A stretch of 64,000 nucleotides of DNA, from the NCBI RefSeq assembly GCF_057098645.1, contig NZ_CM169472.1, one strand, 5' to 3'. Below the pieces are notes generated by a model. That model searched no databases. It was not told the DNA's origin and saw nothing but the letters and a program-made list of their open reading frames with translations. The stretch's first letter is position 1, and each line of letters starts with the position of its first letter. A program made the translations under genes and the position numbers. Below are positions 1-50,508 of the stretch, one piece after another.

Positions 1-1234
1 TTTTTCTAATGGTCATAAGTATCTCGTCAATTTTATTTTGATCAATATTATCTAATTCATGAAGAATAACTATTTTATTCAACTCTTTGTATTGATATGC
101 CAAAGTGGAAGGATACGAAATGACAATATCTACATCAGGGAAATAATCATCATCTGTAATGAAATTCCATTTTGTCTTTTTGGCTTTTTCAGATGCTCTA
201 GCTTTTGGATGTTCTTTATAATAAAGAACAATATTATCTGATAACGTTGAAAGTTGTGACCCAAGACTTAGTTGTCCTCGTTCACACAATGAATGCCCAA
301 TAATTAGAATTGATAATCCTTTATTATTAATTGATGAAACATAAAATGGCTGTTGATAGAAATGAATTTTTATATTGTAATCATTAGCCTGTGAGATTAT
401 ATGCTCTAAAAATAATTCAAGCTCAATTTCGTTAAAGATAGCGAGCTCTGATACAGCTTTCAGTTTATATGAGAGAGAGAAAAATTCATAACCCTTAGTC
501 TTTAACGCCAGTAACGAGCCATGTTGAATTAATATATATCTTTTCCTTTTTATTCTGCATATAAAATCAGTTAAAACAGCCCAACGATCATAATGTTCAC
601 TACTTGCGAGATTGCCTTTAATATTATTCATTCCCATAGCAACCAAAAACCAAGAAGGTGCTGTATAAATATGAAGAAGCCATTTTATACGTGATGGTTT
701 TAAATAATAGATATAACTAAAAATAGATAACAAGAATGCTCTTGCCACATCTAGAAACGATGTTAATTCATATAAATTAATAGCATTAAAGTCACAACTC
801 GTTGGTGTATAATTTACCCATGGTAATTTTATTATAATAAGTTCATCTCGAGATAATTTGTAACTATCATTATCTTTAAAAAAATAGCAAGTTTGCCTCA
901 TTTCTAAATCTGAAAACGAAAAATAGTAAAATTTACCTTCCTTATTATTAGCAACCTTTATTTCTGAAATGGAATTTTTAAATTTAGCCAATATATATTT
1001 AGCAAAAAATAATATAACATATAATAAAAACCCCCCAAAAATAAAGGCAAACATAATCACTGCATAAATAATTTGCAAACTCGATGAACTCCACCTTTCC
1101 CCAGCCCATTTACTTGTCCTGGGAAGTGGTGGCATTTTTTTTGTAATGCTTTTTGATAAAGACTTATCGATATCTATTTCATTTTGTGTTGCGTGTAAAT
1201 AACATTCTATTATTTGCGACATTGATAATTGCAT
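1..1234 (-). CDS. Putative O-antigen glycosyltransferase, possibly a sialyltransferase; partial, 3' end lies beyond the window start
   Basis: Manual minus-strand translation from ATG 1232-1234 (alternative ATG 1220-1222) gives about 411 codons with no stop down to position 1. Absent from the ORF track only because it has no in-window stop. N-terminal hydrophobic helix; EHP motif near residue 350. Start overlaps wzy stop. Family assignment is a guess. Confidence 0.55.
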   Translation of the reverse strand, partial: MQLSMSQIIECYLHATQNEIDIDKSLSKSITKKMPPLPRTSKWAGERWSSSSLQIIYAVIMFAFIFGGFLLYVILFFAKYILAKFKNSISEIKVANNKEGKFYYFSFSDLEMRQTCYFFKDNDSYKLSRDELIIIKLPWVNYTPTSCDFNAINLYELTSFLDVARAFLLSIFSYIYYLKPSRIKWLLHIYTAPSWFLVAMGMNNIKGNLASSEHYDRWAVLTDFICRIKRKRYILIQHGSLLALKTKGYEFFSLSYKLKAVSELAIFNEIELELFLEHIISQANDYNIKIHFYQQPFYVSSINNKGLSILIIGHSLCERGQLSLGSQLSTLSDNIVLYYKEHPKARASEKAKKTKWNFITDDDYFPDVDIVISYPSTLAYQYKELNKIVILHELDNIDQNKIDEILMTIRK

Positions 1235-1236
1235 AT

Positions 1237-2424
1237 TTATCTTCCTATAGAGCTTTTAACTAATTTATATTTATATATATAATATCCGCATGAGATAAAG
1301 AACAATTGATTTACAGGAAAAGAATTTATAAATGAATTTGAAAGCCCGGATATTAGGAAATAAATAAAAACAACTCTCCAAATGGCTATATCTTCAGCCA
1401 TTAACTCATTAAATATTTTAAATTGTATGTTCCAGAAGATAAGCAGCAATAAAATTAATAAAACAATAAAAAAGCCGATTAGACCGGCATAATTAAACAT
1501 TACGAGATAAAAGTTATCTGAAATGAGATTTATATTTTTATCTAAAAAATCAGGTAGCAACATATTCAGATCAACTAAATTTAAATATGTCAGAAAGTTT
1601 TCAACTCGAATTGATGCCGTATACGTATTAAGACCTCGATATTGTGATTCAATACCAGAGATACTGCCCATATAAAATATGGCGTACAATGCACCGCAAA
1701 CAGTGCCAATGCTTGCAAGAGTAAATATTTTTTTTCGCAAGCGAATGCTGGCACTGTCTCTCAATACTACTGTTAATAAAAGTGTCATACCAAGTGATAA
1801 CCATGCTGTGCGCGAACCACTGCTAATTAACGTTATCATCGGCATTATAAGAAATAAAGCTCTTTTAAAAAGACTTTTTATATTTGTCACCAAGGCGATT
1901 AAAATAATAATCGCTGAATAAGCACCACTATTCGTAGGATTCAGAAGAGAAGATATTGACCTAATCCCATCAGTGGCAGCCCAATATGAAACCATATAAT
2001 TATAAAATACCGTTAATTCTAATACAGAAATCGTGCCTACAATAACTCCTGTCCATAAAAGAACTCTATTAACTTTCACCATATTATAAGAAAATAGAGG
2101 AATAATCAGGCAAAAGCTGATCATAGTTGCAATAATCAACATTGTTGTTGCGTAAATTGTTACCGCACCACTGAAAAGGGCTGAAGCAACAGACAGGAAC
2201 AAGAAAAAAAACAATACAAAAAAATAATTAAATTTCTTGTAAATAAATAAGATACTTAGACTTATAACTAAGCAAACTATATATTTTATAATTTTTTGCG
2301 TTAAATCTTCATTATATTTTAATGTGTCAACACCAGAAAAAATAGCATTTAAGTAATATAACGAAGAAATAATTAACCAAAAAAAAAGCACTCCATTTAT
2401 AAACTTATCTTTCTTTATATTCAC
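1237..2424 (-). CDS. wzy: O-antigen polymerase Wzy (polytopic membrane protein)
   Basis: 395 aa, highly hydrophobic multi-TM ORF; GSRTAWLSLG-type motif typical of O-antigen polymerase/ligase-like domain; very low GC; GTG start at 2422-2424. Confidence 0.6.
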   Translation of the reverse strand: MNIKKDKFINGVLFFWLIISSLYYLNAIFSGVDTLKYNEDLTQKIIKYIVCLVISLSILFIYKKFNYFFVLFFFLFLSVASALFSGAVTIYATTMLIIATMISFCLIIPLFSYNMVKVNRVLLWTGVIVGTISVLELTVFYNYMVSYWAATDGIRSISSLLNPTNSGAYSAIIILIALVTNIKSLFKRALFLIMPMITLISSGSRTAWLSLGMTLLLTVVLRDSASIRLRKKIFTLASIGTVCGALYAIFYMGSISGIESQYRGLNTYTASIRVENFLTYLNLVDLNMLLPDFLDKNINLISDNFYLVMFNYAGLIGFFIVLLILLLLIFWNIQFKIFNELMAEDIAIWRVVFIYFLISGLSNSFINSFPVNQLFFISCGYYIYKYKLVKSSIGR

Positions 2425-2431
2425 GTTTATT

Positions 2432-3670
2432 TTAAACCTTTTTTAGAATTTTATATAACGGGATCATTTTTAAGATCAAAAGTAATACAAAACTAGCTAT
2501 CATACCAATTAGCAAGTAATAGATATCACTTTGACATACGCTAAAAAAAACAAATAGTAAAAAAGATAAAAATGATATCAGTTGACTTACTAATATGTAA
2601 CGATCTTCTCTCATCGCGTATAAAGCAATATGTGGAATAAGACTTATACAATAGATATAAGTCGCTGCTATTAATAATATAAATACAGGAAATAATTGTA
2701 TGTAATCTCGTTTATCCAACCACTTAACCAATATAATCCCAGTAAAAAAGCAACAGATGCTCAAGAAAGATAGTAGTAAAATTAATTTATAAGTGAATTT
2801 TCTTAACTCAGATTTAAATTTTATATATTTTTTCCCTGAATATAACAAGGCAAGCTTTGGAAATGAAAAAGATATCAAAATAGTATCCAAAAATGATTGA
2901 ATAGCTGAAGTCATACTAACAAATAATGTATATCCCCCCAAAACTTCTAGGCCCGATATTTTTTCTACCGCGAATCTATCAAACGTGAAAAAGCCTCGTA
3001 GTGCAAGGGCTGCAATTAGCATTGGTACAGACAGCTTTATACCTTTTTTTATCCACGTCCAATCCCAGTTTGTAATATCGCTTTGTTTTTTTTTATTTAA
3101 AATATAAGCCACTCCAAGCACACTCGCGGACACAGTACCACCAAACCAAAAAATAAATACAACTGTTATATTTCTTAAGTTCGGATACACTAGCATCACA
3201 GCTATAGCTAACCAACACCATACACCTTGTCTTACAAAAAGAATAAAACTTGCAATCGATTGGCTTTCTATTGTTATTAGAACTCTATTAATCTCTTGTG
3301 ATAAGTGCTCAAAAAATAAAAGTAGGATAAACCAGTATTCACTTCCAGATGGTAATATTTCTAAATATAATAAAAAAATAAATGCCGGTATACATAGTAT
3401 ATAAGATATAACAGTAAATAGAGCTTGATTTTTTAGTATAAAAAAAAGCCTATTTTTTTGCGAGTTAATTATTTCTCTCGTTGAATACGTATAAAACTCA
3501 AAACCTACAACGAAAATACCATATCCTACAGCTGCATTAATTAATCCATACACTCCTAAATCTGTTGATGGTAAAAGTCGAGCAAGCAAAACAATGAAAA
3601 TAAATTTAGTAAGTAGAGTAATCCCTCTTAATCCAACACTTGAGTAATACTTAAGCATAGTATTAAACAT
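2432..3670 (-). CDS. wzx: O-antigen flippase Wzx
   Basis: 412 aa polytopic membrane protein; N-terminal region (LLARLLPSTDLGVYGL) typical of Wzx/RfbX polysaccharide-transport family; ATG at 3668-3670. Confidence 0.65.
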   Translation of the reverse strand: MFNTMLKYYSSVGLRGITLLTKFIFIVLLARLLPSTDLGVYGLINAAVGYGIFVVGFEFYTYSTREIINSQKNRLFFILKNQALFTVISYILCIPAFIFLLYLEILPSGSEYWFILLLFFEHLSQEINRVLITIESQSIASFILFVRQGVWCWLAIAVMLVYPNLRNITVVFIFWFGGTVSASVLGVAYILNKKKQSDITNWDWTWIKKGIKLSVPMLIAALALRGFFTFDRFAVEKISGLEVLGGYTLFVSMTSAIQSFLDTILISFSFPKLALLYSGKKYIKFKSELRKFTYKLILLLSFLSICCFFTGIILVKWLDKRDYIQLFPVFILLIAATYIYCISLIPHIALYAMREDRYILVSQLISFLSFLLFVFFSVCQSDIYYLLIGMIASFVLLLILKMIPLYKILKKV

Positions 3671-3801
3671 CCAAGGCCAATGTTAAAATCGGAAGTTTTT
3701 AATCTGTGATTATTAAATTTGCAATAATTTAAATATTAATATGAGGTTTTTAAATTTTAAATATCATACAAATAACTTATTAAAAACAATACCCATGTTG
3801 T

Positions 3802-4980
3802 TTATTTTAAATGACTATAGTCATATGCAACATCATAGAAGTCTTTATAATCCAACTTTTCATAAGTTAAAAAATCTTTAATGATTTTAACAATACTATT
3901 CATTACATCATTATTATAGTAAGGATTATGAGCATTTTTTACACGTTCAATGAAACTTTTCTGTTGTGAATAAGCAATGGCACATTCTATACTTTCTTTT
4001 TTACATATGGTATCTATTACCGAATCACCTCTAACCCTTCCTTTTTGGCGATCGCCTATATTAATCGTCGGAACCTTTAAGCTTGGAACCTCAATTAACC
4101 CAGATGACGAATTGCCTATTAAGCCATATGAATATTTTATCAAAGCTAGATATTCTTCAGGTCTCACAGAAATCATATATCGACAGCCATATACTCTACA
4201 AAAATCGAGAGTCATTTCTCTTATTTGTTCTGAACCAGTATCAGCATTTGAGCCAATAAAGATATAATCGTATTCTTCGCTAAAACTAGCTAATGCTTCT
4301 AGTAATTCTAAATACTGCTCTCTAACAGGTAAAGTTGATAACGTTTCAGGATGAAATACGACTACGAAATATTTTCTATTTAACCCACCGTACTTATTTT
4401 CAAGCTCCTTTTTAGAGGGTAATTCTAGTTGCAAACTGTTTTCAGCCCCTAGCGCACCTACATTAAATACACAATTAGGATCTTCACCAAGTTGGATAAC
4501 CCTTTTCCGATATTCATCAGTTGATACTAGATGTAGACGACTCATTTTCGTTATTGAATGTCGTATAAATTCATCATAATTCCCTAACGTTTTCTCTCCA
4601 CCATGAAGATGAATAATAGGTAGGTTATGCATAGAAGCTGCTACTGCCACTGAAAATATTTCGTATCGATCACCTAATATAATGACAGCATCATATTTTT
4701 TCTCTTGGAAATGCTCACCAAATGCTTGTTGGCATATCGACATCGTTTTCAAAACATCTGCGTTGGTTTTATTTTTCAGCTGCAAATCAATTAATTTTTC
4801 AATTAAGAAACCATCATTCTCGATTGTTTTATATGTATAACCATATTCAGAATCGCAATGCATACCTGTTGCAATAATTGATAAATCAATATCAGGATCA
4901 TCTTTTAGACTTTTTAATAGTCGTTTCATAATACCGTACTCAGCTCTTGAGCCGGTGACATAGAGCAATTTTCTTTTCAT
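3802..4980 (-). CDS. neuC: UDP-N-acetylglucosamine 2-epimerase (hydrolysing), NeuC/NnaA
   Basis: 392 aa; N-terminus MKRKLLYVTGSRAEYGI...IATGMHCD matches the NeuC family signature; ATG 4978-4980 overlaps neuA stop. Confidence 0.85.
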   Translation of the reverse strand: MKRKLLYVTGSRAEYGIMKRLLKSLKDDPDIDLSIIATGMHCDSEYGYTYKTIENDGFLIEKLIDLQLKNKTNADVLKTMSICQQAFGEHFQEKKYDAVIILGDRYEIFSVAVAASMHNLPIIHLHGGEKTLGNYDEFIRHSITKMSRLHLVSTDEYRKRVIQLGEDPNCVFNVGALGAENSLQLELPSKKELENKYGGLNRKYFVVVFHPETLSTLPVREQYLELLEALASFSEEYDYIFIGSNADTGSEQIREMTLDFCRVYGCRYMISVRPEEYLALIKYSYGLIGNSSSGLIEVPSLKVPTINIGDRQKGRVRGDSVIDTICKKESIECAIAYSQQKSFIERVKNAHNPYYNNDVMNSIVKIIKDFLTYEKLDYKDFYDVAYDYSHLK

Positions 4981-6242
4981 TTTAAGATACTCGAAATATC
5001 ATTTTCTAACTGTTTGTAAGCTTGTAACGTGAAATGTAAACCATCATAAGTATAATTTTCATTCAGATTGCCGAACTCATCATAAAAAGATGGAGATAAC
5101 GGCATCCAAATAACATTGTCTAATTTACTAAAATATTGTTTCATTGCCAGATTTAATTTATTGATAGTATTATTATCCCTATCAACTCTTCCTCGAACAG
5201 GCGGCACTGCTAGCAGAATGATAGTAACATCAGGATTTATAATTTTTACTCTATTGATCAGATTTTTTGTCCATTTTATAGTGTATTCAATAGTCCAACC
5301 ATCGTTCACAATGTCGTTTGTGCCTGAAATTAATAGCACATACTTACCTATATTGGTGAGCATGTTTTTTTCAATGATGTATTTGTAATATTTTTCGCTA
5401 TCAATGCCAGCAATGCCTAAATTGTTAACCTTAATTCCACATATGTTGCTGAGATCCCAATAATCAAAAATTGAATGTCCAATCAGTGTAATTTGCTCAA
5501 CTTTGTTAAATAAATCTTTTTTATCGACAATTCGTTTGATAATAGCATTATCCAATAAATTTTTTTTATTTTTTTTTGTTTGGATTAGAATTGCCAATTC
5601 AAAATCTAACTGATCATCGATATCAATAGAATCTTCTTTATTCATAATATAGGCTATACTGTCAGCACCAAAGAAATGTTTTTGTCTTAAATAATTAGAA
5701 ACATAACCAATAAAAATCGCACCATTTGGACAGTATTCTTTTTTATTTTGTCTACGATATGTACTAAAATCACAGTCAAAGTTCCTTAATGACAGTGAAT
5801 TATCAATTGGTTTAATTAACGCCGAACTTTTATCACTTTCTACCACAGACACCAAAAATTTTGCTTCGTGATTATTTTCAAATTGCTCAACAGCATTCTT
5901 AATATGCTTATAATTACGAAATGGTGATGTTGGTTGTAGAAGCACAAAATAATCATATCCTGGACATTTTTCAAGCACATCTTGAACTACCATAAAAGAT
6001 GTTGCCGAATCCGACGATAATTCTTTTGTGCGTAATATTACTTCCGCGCCATATTTCTCTGCAATATATTTATATTCTAATGAATCTGTTGAAACAATAA
6101 TTTTATCAAATATATTAGAGCTAATCGCTGCTTCGATAGTATAAGCAATTAATGGGCGATCCAATAACATTAGTATATTTTTATTTCGTAAGCCCTTAGA
6201 TCCAGACCGAGCAGGTATAATGGCAATTTTTTTTAATGACAC
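4977..6242 (-). CDS. neuA: CMP-N-acetylneuraminate synthetase with C-terminal SGNH/GDSL-like esterase domain, NeuA/NnaC
   Basis: 421 aa; N-terminus IAIIPARSGSKGLRNKN is the CMP-sugar cytidylyltransferase signature; C-terminal about 170 aa (LLISGTNDI...DGLHF) resembles the SGNH hydrolase domain of bifunctional NeuA; GTG start. Confidence 0.85.
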   Translation of the reverse strand: MSLKKIAIIPARSGSKGLRNKNILMLLDRPLIAYTIEAAISSNIFDKIIVSTDSLEYKYIAEKYGAEVILRTKELSSDSATSFMVVQDVLEKCPGYDYFVLLQPTSPFRNYKHIKNAVEQFENNHEAKFLVSVVESDKSSALIKPIDNSLSLRNFDCDFSTYRRQNKKEYCPNGAIFIGYVSNYLRQKHFFGADSIAYIMNKEDSIDIDDQLDFELAILIQTKKNKKNLLDNAIIKRIVDKKDLFNKVEQITLIGHSIFDYWDLSNICGIKVNNLGIAGIDSEKYYKYIIEKNMLTNIGKYVLLISGTNDIVNDGWTIEYTIKWTKNLINRVKIINPDVTIILLAVPPVRGRVDRDNNTINKLNLAMKQYFSKLDNVIWMPLSPSFYDEFGNLNENYTYDGLHFTLQAYKQLENDISSILK

Positions 6243-6245
6243 AAC

Positions 6246-7286
6246 TCAAACCTCTTGTTTACTAAAATCAGAGTGCTCAATTAGTTGATCCTCATCAAAA
6301 TCCTTTTCAGCTATTTTACCTAAGACCTCATACCAGTACATTGGACTAATTCCGTTTCCTGGTCGCTTTGTCGTAATATTTTCCGTCGTAAAAATATCTC
6401 CTTTTTTTATTGCACATTTAGCAACAATTGATTTTCGAGCTACTACTTTATTCTTTCGTTCTGAATTTGTTACTAACTTTTCATAGCTACCAAGTGAAAT
6501 TTCTACTGCACGTATTCCTTCGCATAGTAATTTAAGTTCCTCAGGTGTAACTGATGCTTTATGATCTGGACCTTCAAAATTTTTATCCAGTGTAAAATGT
6601 TTCTCAATAAAAGTGATCCCATAAGGCACTGATGCAATACCAGCAAAATAACCTGGAGAATGATCAGAAAATCCAATATTATATTGACTAAATATTTTTT
6701 TGAATCCAGAAATTGTATTTAGATTTACATCTTCAAATGGCGTTGGATACTCTGTATTACAATGTAATATTGTTATATTTCTATGTGTAATGCCATTATC
6801 AATAAAAACCTTTAATGCCAAATTGATTTCATCAACTGTTGCCATACCAGTTGATAGTACAATTTTTTTATCTTCGATTGGCAATTTGGCTATTTTCTCT
6901 AAATATGGTAAATTTAATAATTCGCCTGATGGAATCTTCCAAACTTTTTGATTTCTGGATGCAAGAAAATCGATTGAATCAAAATCAAATGGTGTTGAGA
7001 AGACATCCAACCCAAGTTCTTTTGCATATTCTTCCAGCTTGATAAACTCATCATATGGCAACTCTAACTTACGAGTCATCTCTAATTGAGTCTCTTCATT
7101 ACCGGTAACTTTTATTTGATATTCTGCTTTAGGAGCATATTTTGAGATAAGTTGCTCAGCTTTAAAAGTTTGGAATTTTACTGCATCTACCCCGGCAGAT
7201 TTTGCCTCTTTTACCATTTTCTTAGCTAACTCGAAATCTCCGTTATGATTACAACCAATTTCAGCAACAATATAAATTCTCGACAT
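6246..7286 (-). CDS. neuB: N-acetylneuraminate synthase, NeuB/NnaB
   Basis: N-terminus MSRIYIVAEIGCNHNGDFELAKKM...VDAVKFQTF is the NeuB signature; ATG at 7284-7286 preceded by AGGTGA; the track ORF begins 4 codons upstream at a GTG. Confidence 0.88.
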   Translation of the reverse strand: MSRIYIVAEIGCNHNGDFELAKKMVKEAKSAGVDAVKFQTFKAEQLISKYAPKAEYQIKVTGNEETQLEMTRKLELPYDEFIKLEEYAKELGLDVFSTPFDFDSIDFLASRNQKVWKIPSGELLNLPYLEKIAKLPIEDKKIVLSTGMATVDEINLALKVFIDNGITHRNITILHCNTEYPTPFEDVNLNTISGFKKIFSQYNIGFSDHSPGYFAGIASVPYGITFIEKHFTLDKNFEGPDHKASVTPEELKLLCEGIRAVEISLGSYEKLVTNSERKNKVVARKSIVAKCAIKKGDIFTTENITTKRPGNGISPMYWYEVLGKIAEKDFDEDQLIEHSDFSKQEV

Positions 7287-7294
7287 AATAAAAA

Positions 7295-7921
7295 TCACCT
7301 TGCTCTAATAAACTTTGTAGGAGCCCCGGCCACTACTACATTGTCAGGAACATCACGAATAACTACAGAACCAGAACCAATAATTGATGAATTACCTATC
7401 TTTAGTTGCCCATTAACAACGGTACAACTTCCTATAAAGGATTTTTCCCCAACGAATACATCACCATTAAGAACAACATTAGTAGAGATATTTGTACAAT
7501 ATGATATATAATTCCCATGCTCTACTAATGCTCTTGTGTTTATCACCACTCCATCTTCTAGTTCTGAATCACAGTTAATGATAGCCATTTTCCCTATATA
7601 AATGCAGGTACCAAGCCTAGAATGTTCAGAAATTATAGATGTTCTGTCAATTACATTGATAGTTGAAAGTTTCATTTCTTCTATTAACTTCATCCATAAG
7701 GCTCTGTAATCGGGATCTCCAATTGCAATAAAGTATAGGTATTGGTTAGGTTCGTCTATGACACCTAAAGTATCACCTAAAATAGGGTATCCTTGATGCT
7801 CACCTGTTTTAAATGTATCAATGAACCCTTCTATTTCATACTTTTCATGATCCAAACTGTCAATTACAGTTTTAGCAAAACCACCAGCACCAATAATTAT
7901 TAATTTTTGCTTCATATTCAT
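7295..7921 (-). CDS. neuD: Hexapeptide-repeat acetyltransferase of the sialic-acid pathway, NeuD/NnaD
   Basis: 208 aa; N-terminal Rossmann-like KLIIIGAGGFAK then left-handed beta-helix hexapeptide repeats; first gene after the JUMPstart region. Confidence 0.8.
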   Translation of the reverse strand: MNMKQKLIIIGAGGFAKTVIDSLDHEKYEIEGFIDTFKTGEHQGYPILGDTLGVIDEPNQYLYFIAIGDPDYRALWMKLIEEMKLSTINVIDRTSIISEHSRLGTCIYIGKMAIINCDSELEDGVVINTRALVEHGNYISYCTNISTNVVLNGDVFVGEKSFIGSCTVVNGQLKIGNSSIIGSGSVVIRDVPDNVVVAGAPTKFIRAR

Positions 7922-7996
7922 ACCATCTAATGGTTTGATTAGATCACATTAACTTTGTTGTTACTTGTATTCATGACAACGATAATACATAAATAT

Positions 7997-8035
7997 CTCA
8001 AAAACACACGCTACCGCCCCTGGCTTTACAGCAAC
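7997..8035 (-). promoter_or_regulatory. JUMPstart element with ops (GGCGGTAGCGTG on minus strand at 8007-8018) upstream of the O-antigen operon
   Basis: Exact ops 12-mer read on the minus strand; flanking bases acacgctaccgcccctggcttt are shared with the wza upstream copy at 33061-33082. Confidence 0.85.
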
Positions 8036-8245
8036 CAGAGCACTATCTGAATAACAAAGTTATAACCTGCCTCACCAGCCATAGCAAAGCATTATAATTT
8101 CAACTCTCAATTGTCTTACTAAATACTGGCAGAAACAAGGAAAATCCGACAAAAAATCGGAGTAACATTTTTTACTTAGTGTAATAACCGCAGAGACGTT
8201 AGCTGGCGTTGTTCTTTCTAACATGTGACTGCTAATGCTCGAAAT

Positions 8246-9151
8246 CTACTTCTCTAGTAACATCTCAATACTTTTACGGAACTTCGTCCCTTCTTTCAGG
8301 TTGCGTAGCCCATACTTCACAAACGCCTGCATGTAGCCCATTTTTTTGCCGCAGTCGTAGCTGTCACCAGTCATCAGCATTGCATCAACAGACTGTTTTT
8401 TCGCCAGTTCAGCAATAGCATCAGTCAGTTGGATACGTCCCCATGCACCTGGCTGAGTGCGTTCAAGTTCCGGCCAAATATCGGCAGAAAGCACATAACG
8501 GCCCACGGCCATGATGTCTGAGTCCAGCGTCTGCGGCTGATCCGGTTTTTCGATAAATTCAACAATGCGGCTGACTTTACCTTCGCGATCCAGCGTTTCT
8601 TTGGTCTGAATAACAGAGTATTCAGAGAGGTCACCCGGCATACGTTTTGCCAGCACCAGGCTGCGGCCCGTTTCGTTGAAGCGCGCAATCATGGCTGCAA
8701 GGTTGTAACGCAGCGGGTCGGCGCTGGCGTCGTCGATCACAACGTCTGGCAGCACCACGACAAATGGATTGTCACCAATGGCGGGTCGTGCACATAAAAT
8801 GGAGTGGCCCAAACCTAAAGGTTCGCCCTGACGCACGTTCATAATTGTCACGCCTGGCGGGCAAATGGACTGTACTCCCGCCAGTAGTTGACGCTTCACG
8901 CGCTGCTCAAGGAGAGATTCTAATTCATAAGAGGTGTCGAAGTGGTTTTCGACCGCGTTCTTGGACGCGTGAGTTACCAGGAGGATCTCTTTGATCCCTG
9001 CAGCCACAATCTCGTCAACAATGTACTGAATCATTGGCTTGTCGACGATCGGTAGCATCTCTTTGGGAATCGCCTTAGTGGCAGGCAACATATGCATCCC
9101 AAGACCCGCTACAGGAATAACTGCTTTTAAATTCGTCATTATTTCATCCAC
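8246..9151 (-). CDS. galF: UTP--glucose-1-phosphate uridylyltransferase paralogue GalF
   Basis: 301 aa; [44 protein letters not shown] matches GalF/GalU family; conserved position between colanic-acid and O-antigen clusters. Confidence 0.93.
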
Positions 9152-9412: not shown

Positions 9413-9421
9413 CACCGCATG
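9413..9421. repeat. IS1 target-site duplication, left copy (caccgcatg)
   Basis: 9-bp direct repeat identical to 10190-10198, immediately flanking the IS1 ends. Confidence 0.9.
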
Positions 9422-9476
9422 GGTGATGCTGCCAACTTACTGATTTAGTGTATGATGGTGTTTTTGAGGTGCTCCA

Positions 9477-9752
9477 GTGGCTTCTGTTTCTATCAGCTGT
9501 CCCTCCTGTTCAGCTACTGACGGGGTGGTGCGTAACGGCAAAAGCACTGCCGGACATCAGCGCTATCTCTGCTCTCACTGCCGTAAAACATGGCAACTGC
9601 AGTTCACTTACACCGCTTCTCAACCCGGTACGCACCAGAAAATCATTGATATGGCCATGAATGGCGTTGGATGCCGGGCAACCGCCCGCATTATGGGCGT
9701 TGGCCTCAACACGATTTTCCGCCATTTAAAAAACTCAGGCCGCAGTCGGTAA
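9477..9752 (+). CDS. insA: IS1 InsA (transposition inhibitor / N-terminal part of InsAB' transposase)
   Basis: 91 aa [43 protein letters not shown]... recognised as IS1 InsA. Confidence 0.95.
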
Positions 9753-33051: not shown

Positions 33052-33090
33052 GGCATCCAGACACGCTACCGCCCCTGGCTTTTTAGCTAC
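33052..33090 (-). promoter_or_regulatory. JUMPstart element with ops (GGCGGTAGCGTG on minus strand at 33062-33073) upstream of wza
   Basis: Exact ops 12-mer; about 180 bp upstream of the wza start. Confidence 0.85.
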
Positions 33091-48044: not shown

Positions 48045-48225
48045 AAGAAATCCTTTCTTAGAGAATTATTGAGGTCCGGTATCATACCGATTGCAATAAT
48101 GAAATAAGAGCAAACGAAGAAACTTTCAGAATTAGGCCCGGCGGCGCAGAAAATTTTGCTATTCGCCTCGCAAGAACGGAGAGCCGTCGATTGACACTAA
48201 GGGCGGAGTGACATAATTACAGGAG

Positions 48226-48376
48226 TGAGGGTTAGGGAGAAGTTTCCCCCTCCCCCTGGTGTTCTTAGTAAGCCTGGAAGCTAATCACTAAGAGTATCAC
48301 CAGTATGATGACGTGCTTCATCATAACCCTTTCCTTATTTAAAAGCCCTCTTCTCCGGGAGAGGGTTCCCCGTTTT
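48226..48376 (+). ncRNA. sibA: Sib antisense sRNA, copy 1 (sibA-like antitoxin RNA); ends approximate
   Basis: Sigma70-like promoter (TTGACA 48191-48196, 17-bp spacer, TAATTA 48214-48219); fully antisense to ibsA; hairpin 48346-48365 followed by a T-rich run. Confidence 0.7.
48265..48324 (-). CDS. ibsA: Type I toxin peptide IbsA (19 aa, MMKHVIILVILLVISFQAY)
   Basis: Translated directly from the minus strand; matches my recollection of K-12 IbsA (from memory, not searched); too short to appear in the ORF track. Confidence 0.85.
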   Translation of the reverse strand: MMKHVIILVILLVISFQAY

Positions 48377-48561
48377 AGCGTCCCGCTGAAATCGTCGGCT
48401 TACCTCCTTTCGCCCTGAATGCAGTCTATCGCTGACTTGCGGATAAAATAGTTTCAAGTGTGATTATTGCGTAACGACTCGCAAAGAATATTTGCTGGCA
48501 GGATCGCAGACTGCAAAGCCTGCAGATTGACAATCTTATCGTGAAGGCATACTTTCAGGAG

Positions 48562-48705
48562 TGAGGGTAGAGCGGGGTTTCCCCCGCCCTGGTAGTCTTA
48601 GTAAGCGGGGAAGCTTATGACTAAGAGCACCACGATGATGAGTAGCTTCATCATGACCCTTTCCTTATTTAAGGCCCCTTCCTCGGGAGGGGCTTTCCCG
48701 TTTCA
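48562..48705 (+). ncRNA. sibB: Sib antisense sRNA, copy 2 (sibB-like); ends approximate
   Basis: Promoter TTGACA 48527-48532 / TACTTT 48550-48555; antisense to ibsB; terminator hairpin about 48674-48693 then T-rich run. Confidence 0.7.
48598..48654 (-). CDS. ibsB: Type I toxin peptide IbsB (18 aa, MMKLLIIVVLLVISFPAY)
   Basis: Translated directly from the minus strand; matches my recollection of K-12 IbsB (from memory, not searched). Confidence 0.85.
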   Translation of the reverse strand: MMKLLIIVVLLVISFPAY

Positions 48706-48889
48706 GCGTCCCGCTGAAATCTTCGGCTTACCTCCTTTCGCCCTGTATGCAGTCTATCGCTGACTTGCGGATAAAATAGTTTCAAGTGTGATTATTGCGT
48801 AACGACTCGCAAAGAATATTTGCTGGCAGGATCGCAGACTGCAAAGCCTGCAGATTGACAATCTTATCGTGAAGGCATACTTTCAGGAG

Positions 48890-49033
48890 TGAGGGTAGAG
48901 CGGGGTTTCCCCCGCCCTGGTAGTCTTAGTATGCTGGGTAGCTAATCACTAAGAGCACCACGATGATGAGTATCTTCATCATGACCCTTTCCTTATTTAT
49001 GGCCCCTTCCTCGGGAGGGGCTTTCCCGTTTCA
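48890..49033 (+). ncRNA. Sib antisense sRNA, copy 3 (third tandem module); ends approximate
   Basis: Promoter TTGACA 48855-48860 / TACTTT 48878-48883, identical to copy 2; terminator hairpin about 49003-49022. Confidence 0.65.
48926..48982 (-). CDS. Ibs-family type I toxin peptide, third copy (18 aa, MMKILIIVVLLVISYPAY)
   Basis: Translated directly; differs from the copy-2 peptide at positions 4 and 15 (L to I, F to Y). Confidence 0.75.
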   Translation of the reverse strand: MMKILIIVVLLVISYPAY

Positions 49034-49189
49034 GCGTCCCGCTGAAATCGTCGGCTTACCTCCTTTCGCCATGCAAGCAGTCTATCGCTAACGCGTAGAT
49101 AAAATAGTTTCCTGTGTTATTACTGGATGCGTGCTCGCAAATGTGCCCGCCATTCAGACGATTCCCGATAGTGTTTCATAATTCCTCCA

Positions 49190-49207
49190 TTTTTCTCCCT
49201 TATTGGC
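49190..49207 (+). promoter_or_regulatory. BaeR box upstream of mdtA
   Basis: tttttctcccttattggc matches 17 of 18 positions of the BaeR consensus TTTTTCTCCATDATTGGC as I remember it; about 55 bp upstream of the mdtA ATG. Confidence 0.7.
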
Positions 49208-49260
49208 TGGCTACACTAGTATCATTCCGCGAAACGTTTCAGGAAGAGAAACTCTTAACG

Positions 49261-50508
49261 ATGAAAGGCAGTTATAAATCCCGTTGGGTAATCGTAATCG
49301 TGGTGGTTATCGCCGCCATCGCCGCATTCTGGTTCTGGCAAGGCCGCAATGACTCCCAGAGTGCAGCCCCAGGGGCGACGAAACAAGCGCAGCAATCGCC
49401 AGCGGGTGGTCGCCGTGGTATGCGTTCCGGCCCATTAGCCCCGGTTCAGGCGGCGACCGCCGTAGAACAGGCAGTTCCGCGTTACCTCACCGGGCTTGGC
49501 ACCATTACCGCTGCTAACACCGTTACGGTGCGCAGCCGCGTAGATGGTCAGTTGATGGCGTTACATTTCCAGGAAGGCCAGCAGGTCAAAGCAGGCGATT
49601 TACTGGCAGAAATTGACCCCAGCCAGTTCAAAGTTGCATTAGCACAAGCCCAGGGCCAACTGGCAAAAGATAAAGCCACGCTTGCCAACGCCCGCCGTGA
49701 CCTGGCGCGTTATCAACAACTGGTAAAAACCAATCTCGTATCTCGTCAGGAACTGGATGCCCAACAAGCGCTGGTCAGTGAAACCGAAGGCACCATTAAG
49801 GCTGATGAAGCAAGCGTCGCCAGCGCACAGCTGCAACTCGACTGGAGCCGCATCACCGCACCAGTCGATGGTCGCGTTGGTCTCAAGCAGGTTGATGTTG
49901 GTAACCAAATCTCCAGTGGTGATACCACCGGAATTGTGGTGATCACCCAGACGCATCCTATCGATTTGCTCTTTACCCTGCCGGAAAGCGATATCGCTAC
50001 CGTTGTGCAGGCGCAAAAAGCCGGAAAACCGCTGGTGGTAGAAGCCTGGGATCGCACCAACTCGAAGAAATTAAGTGAAGGCACGCTGTTAAGTCTCGAT
50101 AACCAAATCGATGCCACTACCGGTACGATTAAAGTGAAAGCACGCTTTAATAATCAGGATGATGCGCTGTTTCCCAATCAGTTTGTTAACGCGCGCATGT
50201 TAGTCGACACCGAACAAAACGCCGTAGTGATCCCAACAGCCGCCCTGCAAATGGGCAATGAAGGCCATTTTGTCTGGGTGCTGAATAGCGAAAACAAGGT
50301 CAGCAAACATCTGGTGACGCCGGGCATTCAGGACAGTCAGAAAGTGGTGATCCGCGCAGGTATTTCTGCGGGCGATCGCGTGGTGACAGACGGCATTGAT
50401 CGCCTGACCGAAGGGGCGAAAGTGGAAGTGGTGGAAGCCCAGAGCGCCACCACTCCGGAAGAGAAAGCCACCAGCCGCGAATACGCGAAAAAAGGAGCAC
50501 GCTCCTGA
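49261..50508 (+). CDS. mdtA: Multidrug efflux RND membrane-fusion protein MdtA
   Basis: 415 aa from ATG 49261 ([16 protein letters not shown]...); the track ORF is an in-frame upstream extension. Confidence 0.95.

Follow-up and report, generated by a model that had tools for sequence, protein, structure and literature searches.

Which surface polysaccharide is encoded by the sialic acid gene block that opens this Escherichia coli sequence, and which of its proteins attaches the sialic acid? The sequence is a stretch of 64,000 nucleotides (nt) from contig NZ_CM169472.1 of RefSeq assembly GCF_057098645.1 (hereafter the window), in which positions 1 to 8245, next to galF, hold genes for making N-acetylneuraminic acid (Neu5Ac). 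We find that this block almost certainly represents the promoter-proximal (galF-side) half of the cluster for the E. coli O145 O antigen, a Wzx/Wzy-dependent system, and that its seventh gene probably encodes the transferase that places Neu5Ac on the acetamidino sugar L-FucNAm (N-acetimidoyl-L-fucosamine). The O145 cluster is already known; mild novelty lies only in the putative family of nonulosonic acid transferases to which the seventh protein would belong.

A megablast search of 5,426 complete E. coli genomes with positions 1 to 8245 returned 37 that cover the whole block at 99.7 to 99.9% identity, and the genomes listed and examined among these 37 are O145 strains, many of them O145:H28 strains of E. 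coli that make Shiga toxin (STEC). RefSeq names the wzx and wzy products in these strains "O145 family O-antigen flippase" and "O145 family O-antigen polymerase." Gene order and content in the O145:H28 strains RM9872, RM12761, and RM13516 equal those of the window, with 99.9% nt identity over the block. The initial annotation held that the serogroup could not be assigned from the sequence alone. This was wrong, because the full-length identity of about 99.9% to O145 genomes, together with the O145 family names of wzx and wzy, makes the serogroup readable, and we saw no evidence contradicting the O145 assignment. Other partial matches listed were O104-type sequences aligning over neuD-neuB at about 75% identity, and the remaining listed records matched JUMPstart alone. 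O145 belongs to the "big six" of STEC serogroups other than O157, for which wzx and wzy are standard typing targets; the block marks its source as an O145 strain and adds no new biology in that respect.

Positions 1 to 9151 hold eight open reading frames (ORFs), all on the minus strand, and are laid out from the galF side as follows.

8246 to 9151, minus strand: galF, 301 amino acids (aa); TIGR01105 at 674 bits, above the cutoff; RefSeq start at 9139
8007 to 8045, minus strand: JUMPstart element, 39 nt, sequence read directly
8007 to 8018, minus strand: JUMPstart 12-mer GGCGGTAGCGTG
8011 to 8018, minus strand: ops site GGCGGTAG within JUMPstart
7295 to 7921, minus strand: neuD, 208 aa, NeuD-family sugar acetyltransferase with hexapeptide repeats; RefSeq start at 7915
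6246 to 7298, minus strand: neuB, 350 aa, N-acetylneuraminate synthase; RefSeq start at 7286, ORF reaching 7298
4977 to 6242, minus strand: neuA, 421 aa, CMP-Neu5Ac synthetase with a C-terminal GDSL/SGNH esterase domain
3802 to 4980, minus strand: neuC, 392 aa, hydrolyzing UDP-N-acetylglucosamine (UDP-GlcNAc) 2-epimerase with N-acetylmannosamine (ManNAc) as product
2432 to 3670, minus strand: wzx, O145 O-unit flippase, 412 aa
1237 to 2424, minus strand: wzy, O145 O-antigen polymerase, 395 aa
1 to 1234, minus strand: seventh ORF, a membrane-anchored predicted GT-B protein (WP_001177241), 418 aa when complete

The order neuD-neuB-neuA-neuC downstream of galF and JUMPstart, followed by Wzx- and Wzy-like proteins, had been proposed in the initial annotation and is confirmed, at the same positions and on the minus strand. 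The seventh gene does run off the window, as was also noted there: comparison with RM9872 shows that 23 nt, the last seven codons plus the stop, are cut off at the window start. galF, a conserved marker for the left flank of the O-antigen locus, is annotated likewise by RefSeq in RM9872 and RM12761. The gap of 324 nt between galF and neuD contains JUMPstart, whose ops site is the loading site of RfaH, the factor for antitermination along the O-antigen operon. The exact 12-mer GGCGGTAGCGTG occurs twice in the 64-kb window, against zero occurrences expected by chance; the second copy (positions 33062 to 33073, minus strand) is found upstream of wza, where the colanic acid operon begins. Among the matches listed, the stretch from 8000 to 8044 is 97.6 to 97.8% identical in non-O145 genomes, with 66 records at 95 to 99%. 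The sharply low guanine-plus-cytosine (GC) content that first drew attention to the block is borne out, at 0.306 for positions 1 to 7921 versus 0.528 for positions 8246 to 64000, with the step falling between 8000 and 8500. Low GC content is common in O-antigen clusters.

The remainder of the cluster can be read from RM9872, in which about 7.4 kb beyond the window start encode an N-acetyl sugar amidotransferase (WbuX), HisH- and HisF-like proteins, FnlA, FnlB, FnlC, a family 4 glycosyltransferase (GT4; WbuB), and WbuC; fnlB and fnlC are annotated there as wbjC and wecB. After wbuC come gnd, then ugd and wzzB, and the presence of gnd after the cluster in the matching genomes bears out the expectation that it would be found past the window start. 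This wbuXYZ-fnlABC-wbuB-wbuC half is present in every matching genome examined and lies outside the window itself, which by this comparison covers about half of a 15-gene cluster. The original reading of the block as a sialic acid-type O-antigen cluster is upheld by its gene content, by its site between galF/JUMPstart and gnd, and by its identity to O145. According to later papers that cite the work (PMC7685785 and PMC10607449), Feng et al. described the O145 cluster in 2005 (J Bacteriol 187:758). A review counts five Neu5Ac-containing E. coli O antigens with nnaABCD, O145 included, and assigns the L-FucNAm-(alpha1-3)-GlcNAc linkage of O145 to WbuB (PMC7685785); O145 WbuX has been described as the FucNAm amidotransferase (PMC10607449).

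In the alternative Nna naming, NnaD, NnaB, NnaC, and NnaA correspond to NeuD, NeuB, NeuA, and NeuC. Curated NCBIfam models were matched over essentially their whole length by NeuD (TIGR03570, 188.5 bits against a cutoff of 160.8, profile positions 1 to 202 of 202), NeuB (TIGR03569, 467.1 bits against 399.65, positions 2 to 329 of 329), and NeuC (TIGR03568, 445 bits against 235.9, positions 1 to 365 of 365). NeuA matched no NCBIfam equivalog, the best model being PseF, below its cutoff; in Pfam it matched CTP_transf_3 (residues 6 to 193, 2e-33) and Lipase_GDSL_2 (residues 272 to 410, 1.6e-10). NeuA from the K1 capsule locus has this same two-domain synthetase/esterase architecture, and the two proteins align over their whole lengths (421 and 418 residues) with 52% identity; the corresponding end-to-end identities are 60% for NeuD, 71% for NeuB, and 61% for NeuC. 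All four proteins therefore align over their full lengths with their K1 counterparts, as the Neu labels given in the initial annotation implied. Wzx matched Pfam Polysacc_synt (PF01943; E = 1.2e-9, residues 16 to 273). The Pfam Wzy_C match of Wzy was weak (E = 0.0048), and its assignment is that of the RefSeq name and of its position in the cluster. Neither these two membrane proteins nor the seventh protein had a match in NCBIfam.

The seventh protein is where the second question must be answered. The part of its ORF inside the window is identical to RM9872 (L001:11978-13234). It is a "hypothetical protein" in RefSeq and an "Uncharacterized protein" in UniProt and AFDB (A0A9Q6UZZ7); we take its gene to be the one called WbuW, a name for which a literature search gave no confirmation and one unrelated paper. 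It has no Pfam match even at E <= 10, and neither phmmer nor a profile hmmsearch against PDB sequences returned anything useful. The glycosyltransferase label of the initial annotation thus does not hold by sequence, and what stands in its place is a predicted GT-B fold, gene context, and one motif. The predicted structure (pLDDT, a per-residue confidence measure, of 88.3) has the GT-B fold, and some of its structural neighbors in AFDB are labeled GT52. A word-indexed search found 24 unnamed clusters of homologues (Salmonella, Citrobacter, Xenorhabdus, Photorhabdus, and Campylobacterales), and an exhaustive profile search raised the number to 721 representative clusters (50% identity), of which 384 reach E <= 1e-30 and almost all are full length (390 to 450 aa).

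Across 47 diverse relatives, the invariant positions are H214, D216-R217-W218-A219, Q237-H238-G239, H342-P343, P366, Y374, S376, Y382, and H392; H342-P343 is also invariant in a set of 19 sequences, and T377 is nearly so. We infer roles for D216 and H342. The HP dipeptide is one of two signature motifs of bacterial sialyltransferases, the other being D/E-D/E-G, and its histidine contacts the CMP phosphate (PMC5420450, PMC4202792). In the seventh protein, HP follows a beta-strand in the C-terminal domain. In profile-profile comparison by hhalign, this HP and that of GT52 came into register (probability 54%, E = 1.3e-4, 60 columns), as did, in a short local match, this HP and that of GT38/NeuS (E = 0.0014 to 0.0056); the sole region that aligned in these comparisons was the beta-alpha-beta unit ending in HP. 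Comparisons with single sequences were not significant, either for O104 WbwA (E = 0.19) or for K1 NeuE (E = 0.42).

Gene context is the strongest functional evidence that we found for the seventh protein. Wherever the locus of a relative offers enough flank, NeuB, a CMP-sugar synthetase, or both are encoded beside the homologue, a count that leaves out one locus with too little upstream flank and two on contigs too short to hold nonulosonic acid genes. On marine and other metagenomic contigs, the homologue lies between a legionaminic acid-type module (aminotransferase, NeuC-like epimerase, NeuB, PglD-like protein, PtmE/F/A-like proteins, and CMP-sugar synthetase) and the same FucNAm module that is found in O145. 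Elsewhere it directly follows the legionaminic-type module, as in locus L012, or, in locus L013, sits inside a different nonulosonic acid module with no fnl genes in view. This distribution suggests a conserved glycan motif, a nonulosonic acid on L-FucNAm, that would extend well beyond Enterobacterales. The metagenomic contigs L004, L009, L011, and L012 carry homologues with legionaminic-type modules and not with neuDBAC, and the FucNAm module is often downstream.

The O145 cluster offers two candidates for a cytoplasmic transferase, the GT4 gene and the seventh gene. With the GT4 protein WbuB accounted for, the seventh protein is the only transferase left in the cluster without a role, and it is therefore most likely the one that transfers Neu5Ac to L-FucNAm. 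We consider it probable, by elimination and from the predicted fold, the motif, and the gene context, that this protein is a CMP-Neu5Ac:L-FucNAm sialyltransferase.

Several observations weigh against this assignment. The HP-region alignments suggest kinship with GT52 and GT38, but they are local and not decisive. None of the 47 diverse members has a match at E <= 0.001 to a sialyltransferase family in Pfam (PF07922, PF07388, or PF11477), nor to any other Pfam family at that threshold; the nearest approach is a faint PF07388 match in one of them (E = 0.011). The 47 relatives also have no conserved D/E-D/E-G triplet. The aligned counterparts of that motif are E163-E164-G165 in GT38 and E111-D112-G113 in GT52; in the seventh protein, the nearest triplet ending in glycine in the N-terminal half is the invariant Q-H-G. 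The searchable literature yielded no biochemical or genetic test of the protein, and no characterized sialyltransferase for either O145 or O48. Finally, a role tied to the acetamidino sugar may be conceivable, because the homologues abut the amidotransferase gene in many relatives.

This last point is the basis of the best-surviving alternative, which we consider improbable, namely, that the seventh gene is an accessory of L-FucNAm formation or handling that works with the amidotransferase, while Neu5Ac is added by the GT4 protein or by an enzyme from outside the cluster. The seventh gene overlaps the amidotransferase gene by 11 nt in O145 and lies directly upstream of it in most relatives, and the absence of a significant match to any sialyltransferase family would fit such a role. 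Against it stand the predicted GT-B fold with its HP motif, the prior assignment of the FucNAm-GlcNAc linkage to WbuB, and the loci L012 and L013, in which the homologue is away from the amidotransferase gene and still within a nonulosonic acid module. The E. coli O118/O151 cluster shares the 3' half of O145 (wbuX-hisH-hisF-fnlA-fnlB-fnlC-wbuB-wbuC, with 84.6% nt identity over the wbuX-hisH-hisF stretch compared), and both O antigens contain L-FucNAm, which O118/O151 makes through the same wbuXYZ-fnlABC-wbuB-wbuC module with no homologue of the seventh gene. Its 5' half differs, having ribitol-phosphate functions (a fusion of a cytidylyltransferase with a short-chain dehydrogenase/reductase, and LicD) together with a GT4 gene and no neu genes, and GT4 and LicD stand where O145 has the seventh gene. 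Since O118/O151 has the FucNAm half and lacks the seventh gene, that gene is not required for FucNAm and sits in the slot of the second transferase. A part for the seventh gene in FucNAm synthesis proper was rejected on the same comparison.

If the seventh protein is indeed the sialyltransferase, the question becomes how it relates to the families already described. GT52 (Neisseria NST/Lst and O104 WbwA), GT38 (K1 NeuS), and GT80 (PmST1) share with it a predicted GT-B fold and the HP motif. It differs from them in having some 90 additional residues at the N terminus, among them a long hydrophobic helix, and in its acceptor, which would be L-FucNAm and not galactose (Gal) or sialic acid. We postulate, at what we regard as even odds, that the seventh protein and its relatives form a new sialyltransferase family, or else a very divergent branch of GT52, made up of widespread, unannotated, membrane-anchored GT-B nonulosonic acid transferases, of which the seventh protein may be the first that can be characterized. 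In this reading, the sugar moved by the candidate family would be Neu5Ac or of the legionaminic type, with L-FucNAm as a frequent acceptor, and its members would combine HP with a catalytic arrangement (H-x-D-R-W and Q-H-G) unlike the D/E-D/E-G of GT38, GT52, and GT80. If true, this would widen the toolbox for glycan synthesis, with Neu5Ac or, by relatives, legionaminic-type sugars placed onto a 6-deoxy-amino sugar, and several hundred protein clusters that now lack an annotation would gain one.

Two further alternatives concern the block as a whole. One is that it encodes a sialic acid capsule (K antigen) or some other non-O-antigen polysaccharide. Its neuDBAC order is that of the K1 capsule locus, and its proteins are 52 to 71% identical to those of K1, yet it has wzx and wzy in place of kps ABC transporter genes and a polysialyltransferase, with neither neuE nor neuS; it sits between galF/JUMPstart and gnd, whereas the K1 locus is at another chromosomal site beside gsp genes; and its identity to the O-antigen locus in serotyped O145 strains is 99.9%. 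We reject the capsule explanation as having next to no chance of being right. We likewise dismiss as vanishingly improbable the idea that the sugar is of the pseudaminic or legionaminic type instead of Neu5Ac, to which the PseF hit of NeuA (though below its cutoff) and the legionaminic-type modules beside distant relatives of the seventh gene might point, for NeuB and NeuC exceed Neu5Ac-specific equivalog cutoffs while the pseudaminate synthase model PseI falls below its own in NeuB, the O145 cluster has no aminotransferase, 4,6-dehydratase, or PtmE/F-type genes, and the published O145 structure has Neu5Ac (PMC7685785).

Comparison with other sialylated O antigens places O145 more closely. In E. 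coli O104, as in O24, O56, and O171, neuD-neuB-neuA-neuC comes directly past galF/JUMPstart in a Wzx/Wzy-dependent cluster like that of O145, and the NeuD and NeuB proteins of O104 and O145 are 75 to 81% identical. O104 has a different wzx, wzy, and set of transferases without the FucNAm module, whereas O145 pairs Neu5Ac with L-FucNAm; O104 encodes the GT52 sialyltransferase WbwA, which uses a Gal acceptor, whereas O145 has no GT52 gene and instead has the unclassified GT-B protein. Outside E. coli, in Salmonella enterica O48 (serovar Toucra) and related clusters, homologues of the seventh protein reach identities of 60% in Salmonella, 43% in Citrobacter, and 35% in both Photorhabdus and Xenorhabdus; for a fragment from a Salmonella serovar of type O48, the figure is 68%. 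In the O48 O antigen, Neu5Ac carries GlcNAc at C-4 (PMC9631793).

A whole O145-type cluster is found in the insect pathogen Photorhabdus thracensis (CP011104; L002 2405-18284), in the same order and with proteins 35 to 81% identical to those of O145: neuD-neuB-neuA-neuC, wzx, wzy, the homologue of the seventh gene, the amidotransferase gene, hisH, hisF, fnlABC, and a GT4 gene. Its Wzx and Wzy are 44% and 43% identical to those of O145, respectively, which suggests that the repeat units are alike and that the cluster has passed as a whole from one genus to another. The horizontal acquisition that had been proposed from base composition is backed by this syntenic cluster and by the Salmonella and Citrobacter homologues. 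An insertion sequence (IS) with a DDE transposase lies just downstream of the P. thracensis cluster.

The O145 O unit reportedly consists of three sugars, GlcNAc, L-FucNAm, and Neu5Ac, and is a close relative of that of Salmonella O48, with differences in O-acetylation; the gene set indicates how the O145 unit is built, with linkages taken from the literature. Transcription enters from the galF side, with RfaH loaded at the ops site carrying it through the AT-rich operon. NeuC converts UDP-GlcNAc to ManNAc, NeuB condenses ManNAc with phosphoenolpyruvate to give Neu5Ac, and the N-terminal domain of NeuA activates this to CMP-Neu5Ac. NeuD and the C-terminal esterase of NeuA would act as a pair for O-acetylation and de-O-acetylation, of the kind known from K1 and group B Streptococcus. 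On the carrier side, WecA, encoded elsewhere, puts GlcNAc-1-phosphate on the undecaprenyl pyrophosphate carrier, and WbuB, encoded just past the window, adds L-FucNAm in alpha1-3 linkage. The seventh protein would then most probably move Neu5Ac from CMP-Neu5Ac onto L-FucNAm, after which Wzx flips the trisaccharide and Wzy polymerizes it.

The strain itself is close to sequenced O145:H28 genomes, although the window is identical to no complete genome among the 5,426 E. coli searched. Relative to RM9872, positions 1 to 8245 carry seven substitutions, including three nt in wzx and one, synonymous, in wzy; the amino acid differences are C379 in Wzx (Y in RM9872), D377 in NeuC (G), and R19 in NeuA (P). 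Relative to RM12761 there are eight substitutions in the same interval, and they continue, scattered at about one per kb, through the first 17 kb. Substitutions at 1618, 2535, 3758, 3851, and 6187 are absent from both references, and one of these five gives the arginine at NeuA residue 19, which is also arginine in K1 NeuA and proline in both O145 references. Near 17061, between wcaJ and cpsG, the window and RM12761 fall out of register, probably through an indel.

The last gene of the colanic acid operon, wcaM, is split by an IS1 element, inserted 108 nt before its stop codon. The features are as follows.

9413 to 10198: whole feature including the 9-bp target duplication CACCGCATG
9422 to 10189: IS1, 768 bp
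9477 to 9752, plus strand: insA
9671 to 10174, plus strand: insB

The exact wcaM::IS1 junction occurs in 2 of the 5,426 complete genomes, both O145:H28: RM12761 (ice cream, Belgium) and RM13516. These two are isolates of the Belgian ice cream outbreak, and the source is apparently of their lineage. Between yegL and mdtA, RM12761 also has four tandem genes annotated as Ibs type I toxins, ibsA together with three paralogues, in a region collinear with positions of about 48200 to 49400 of the window.

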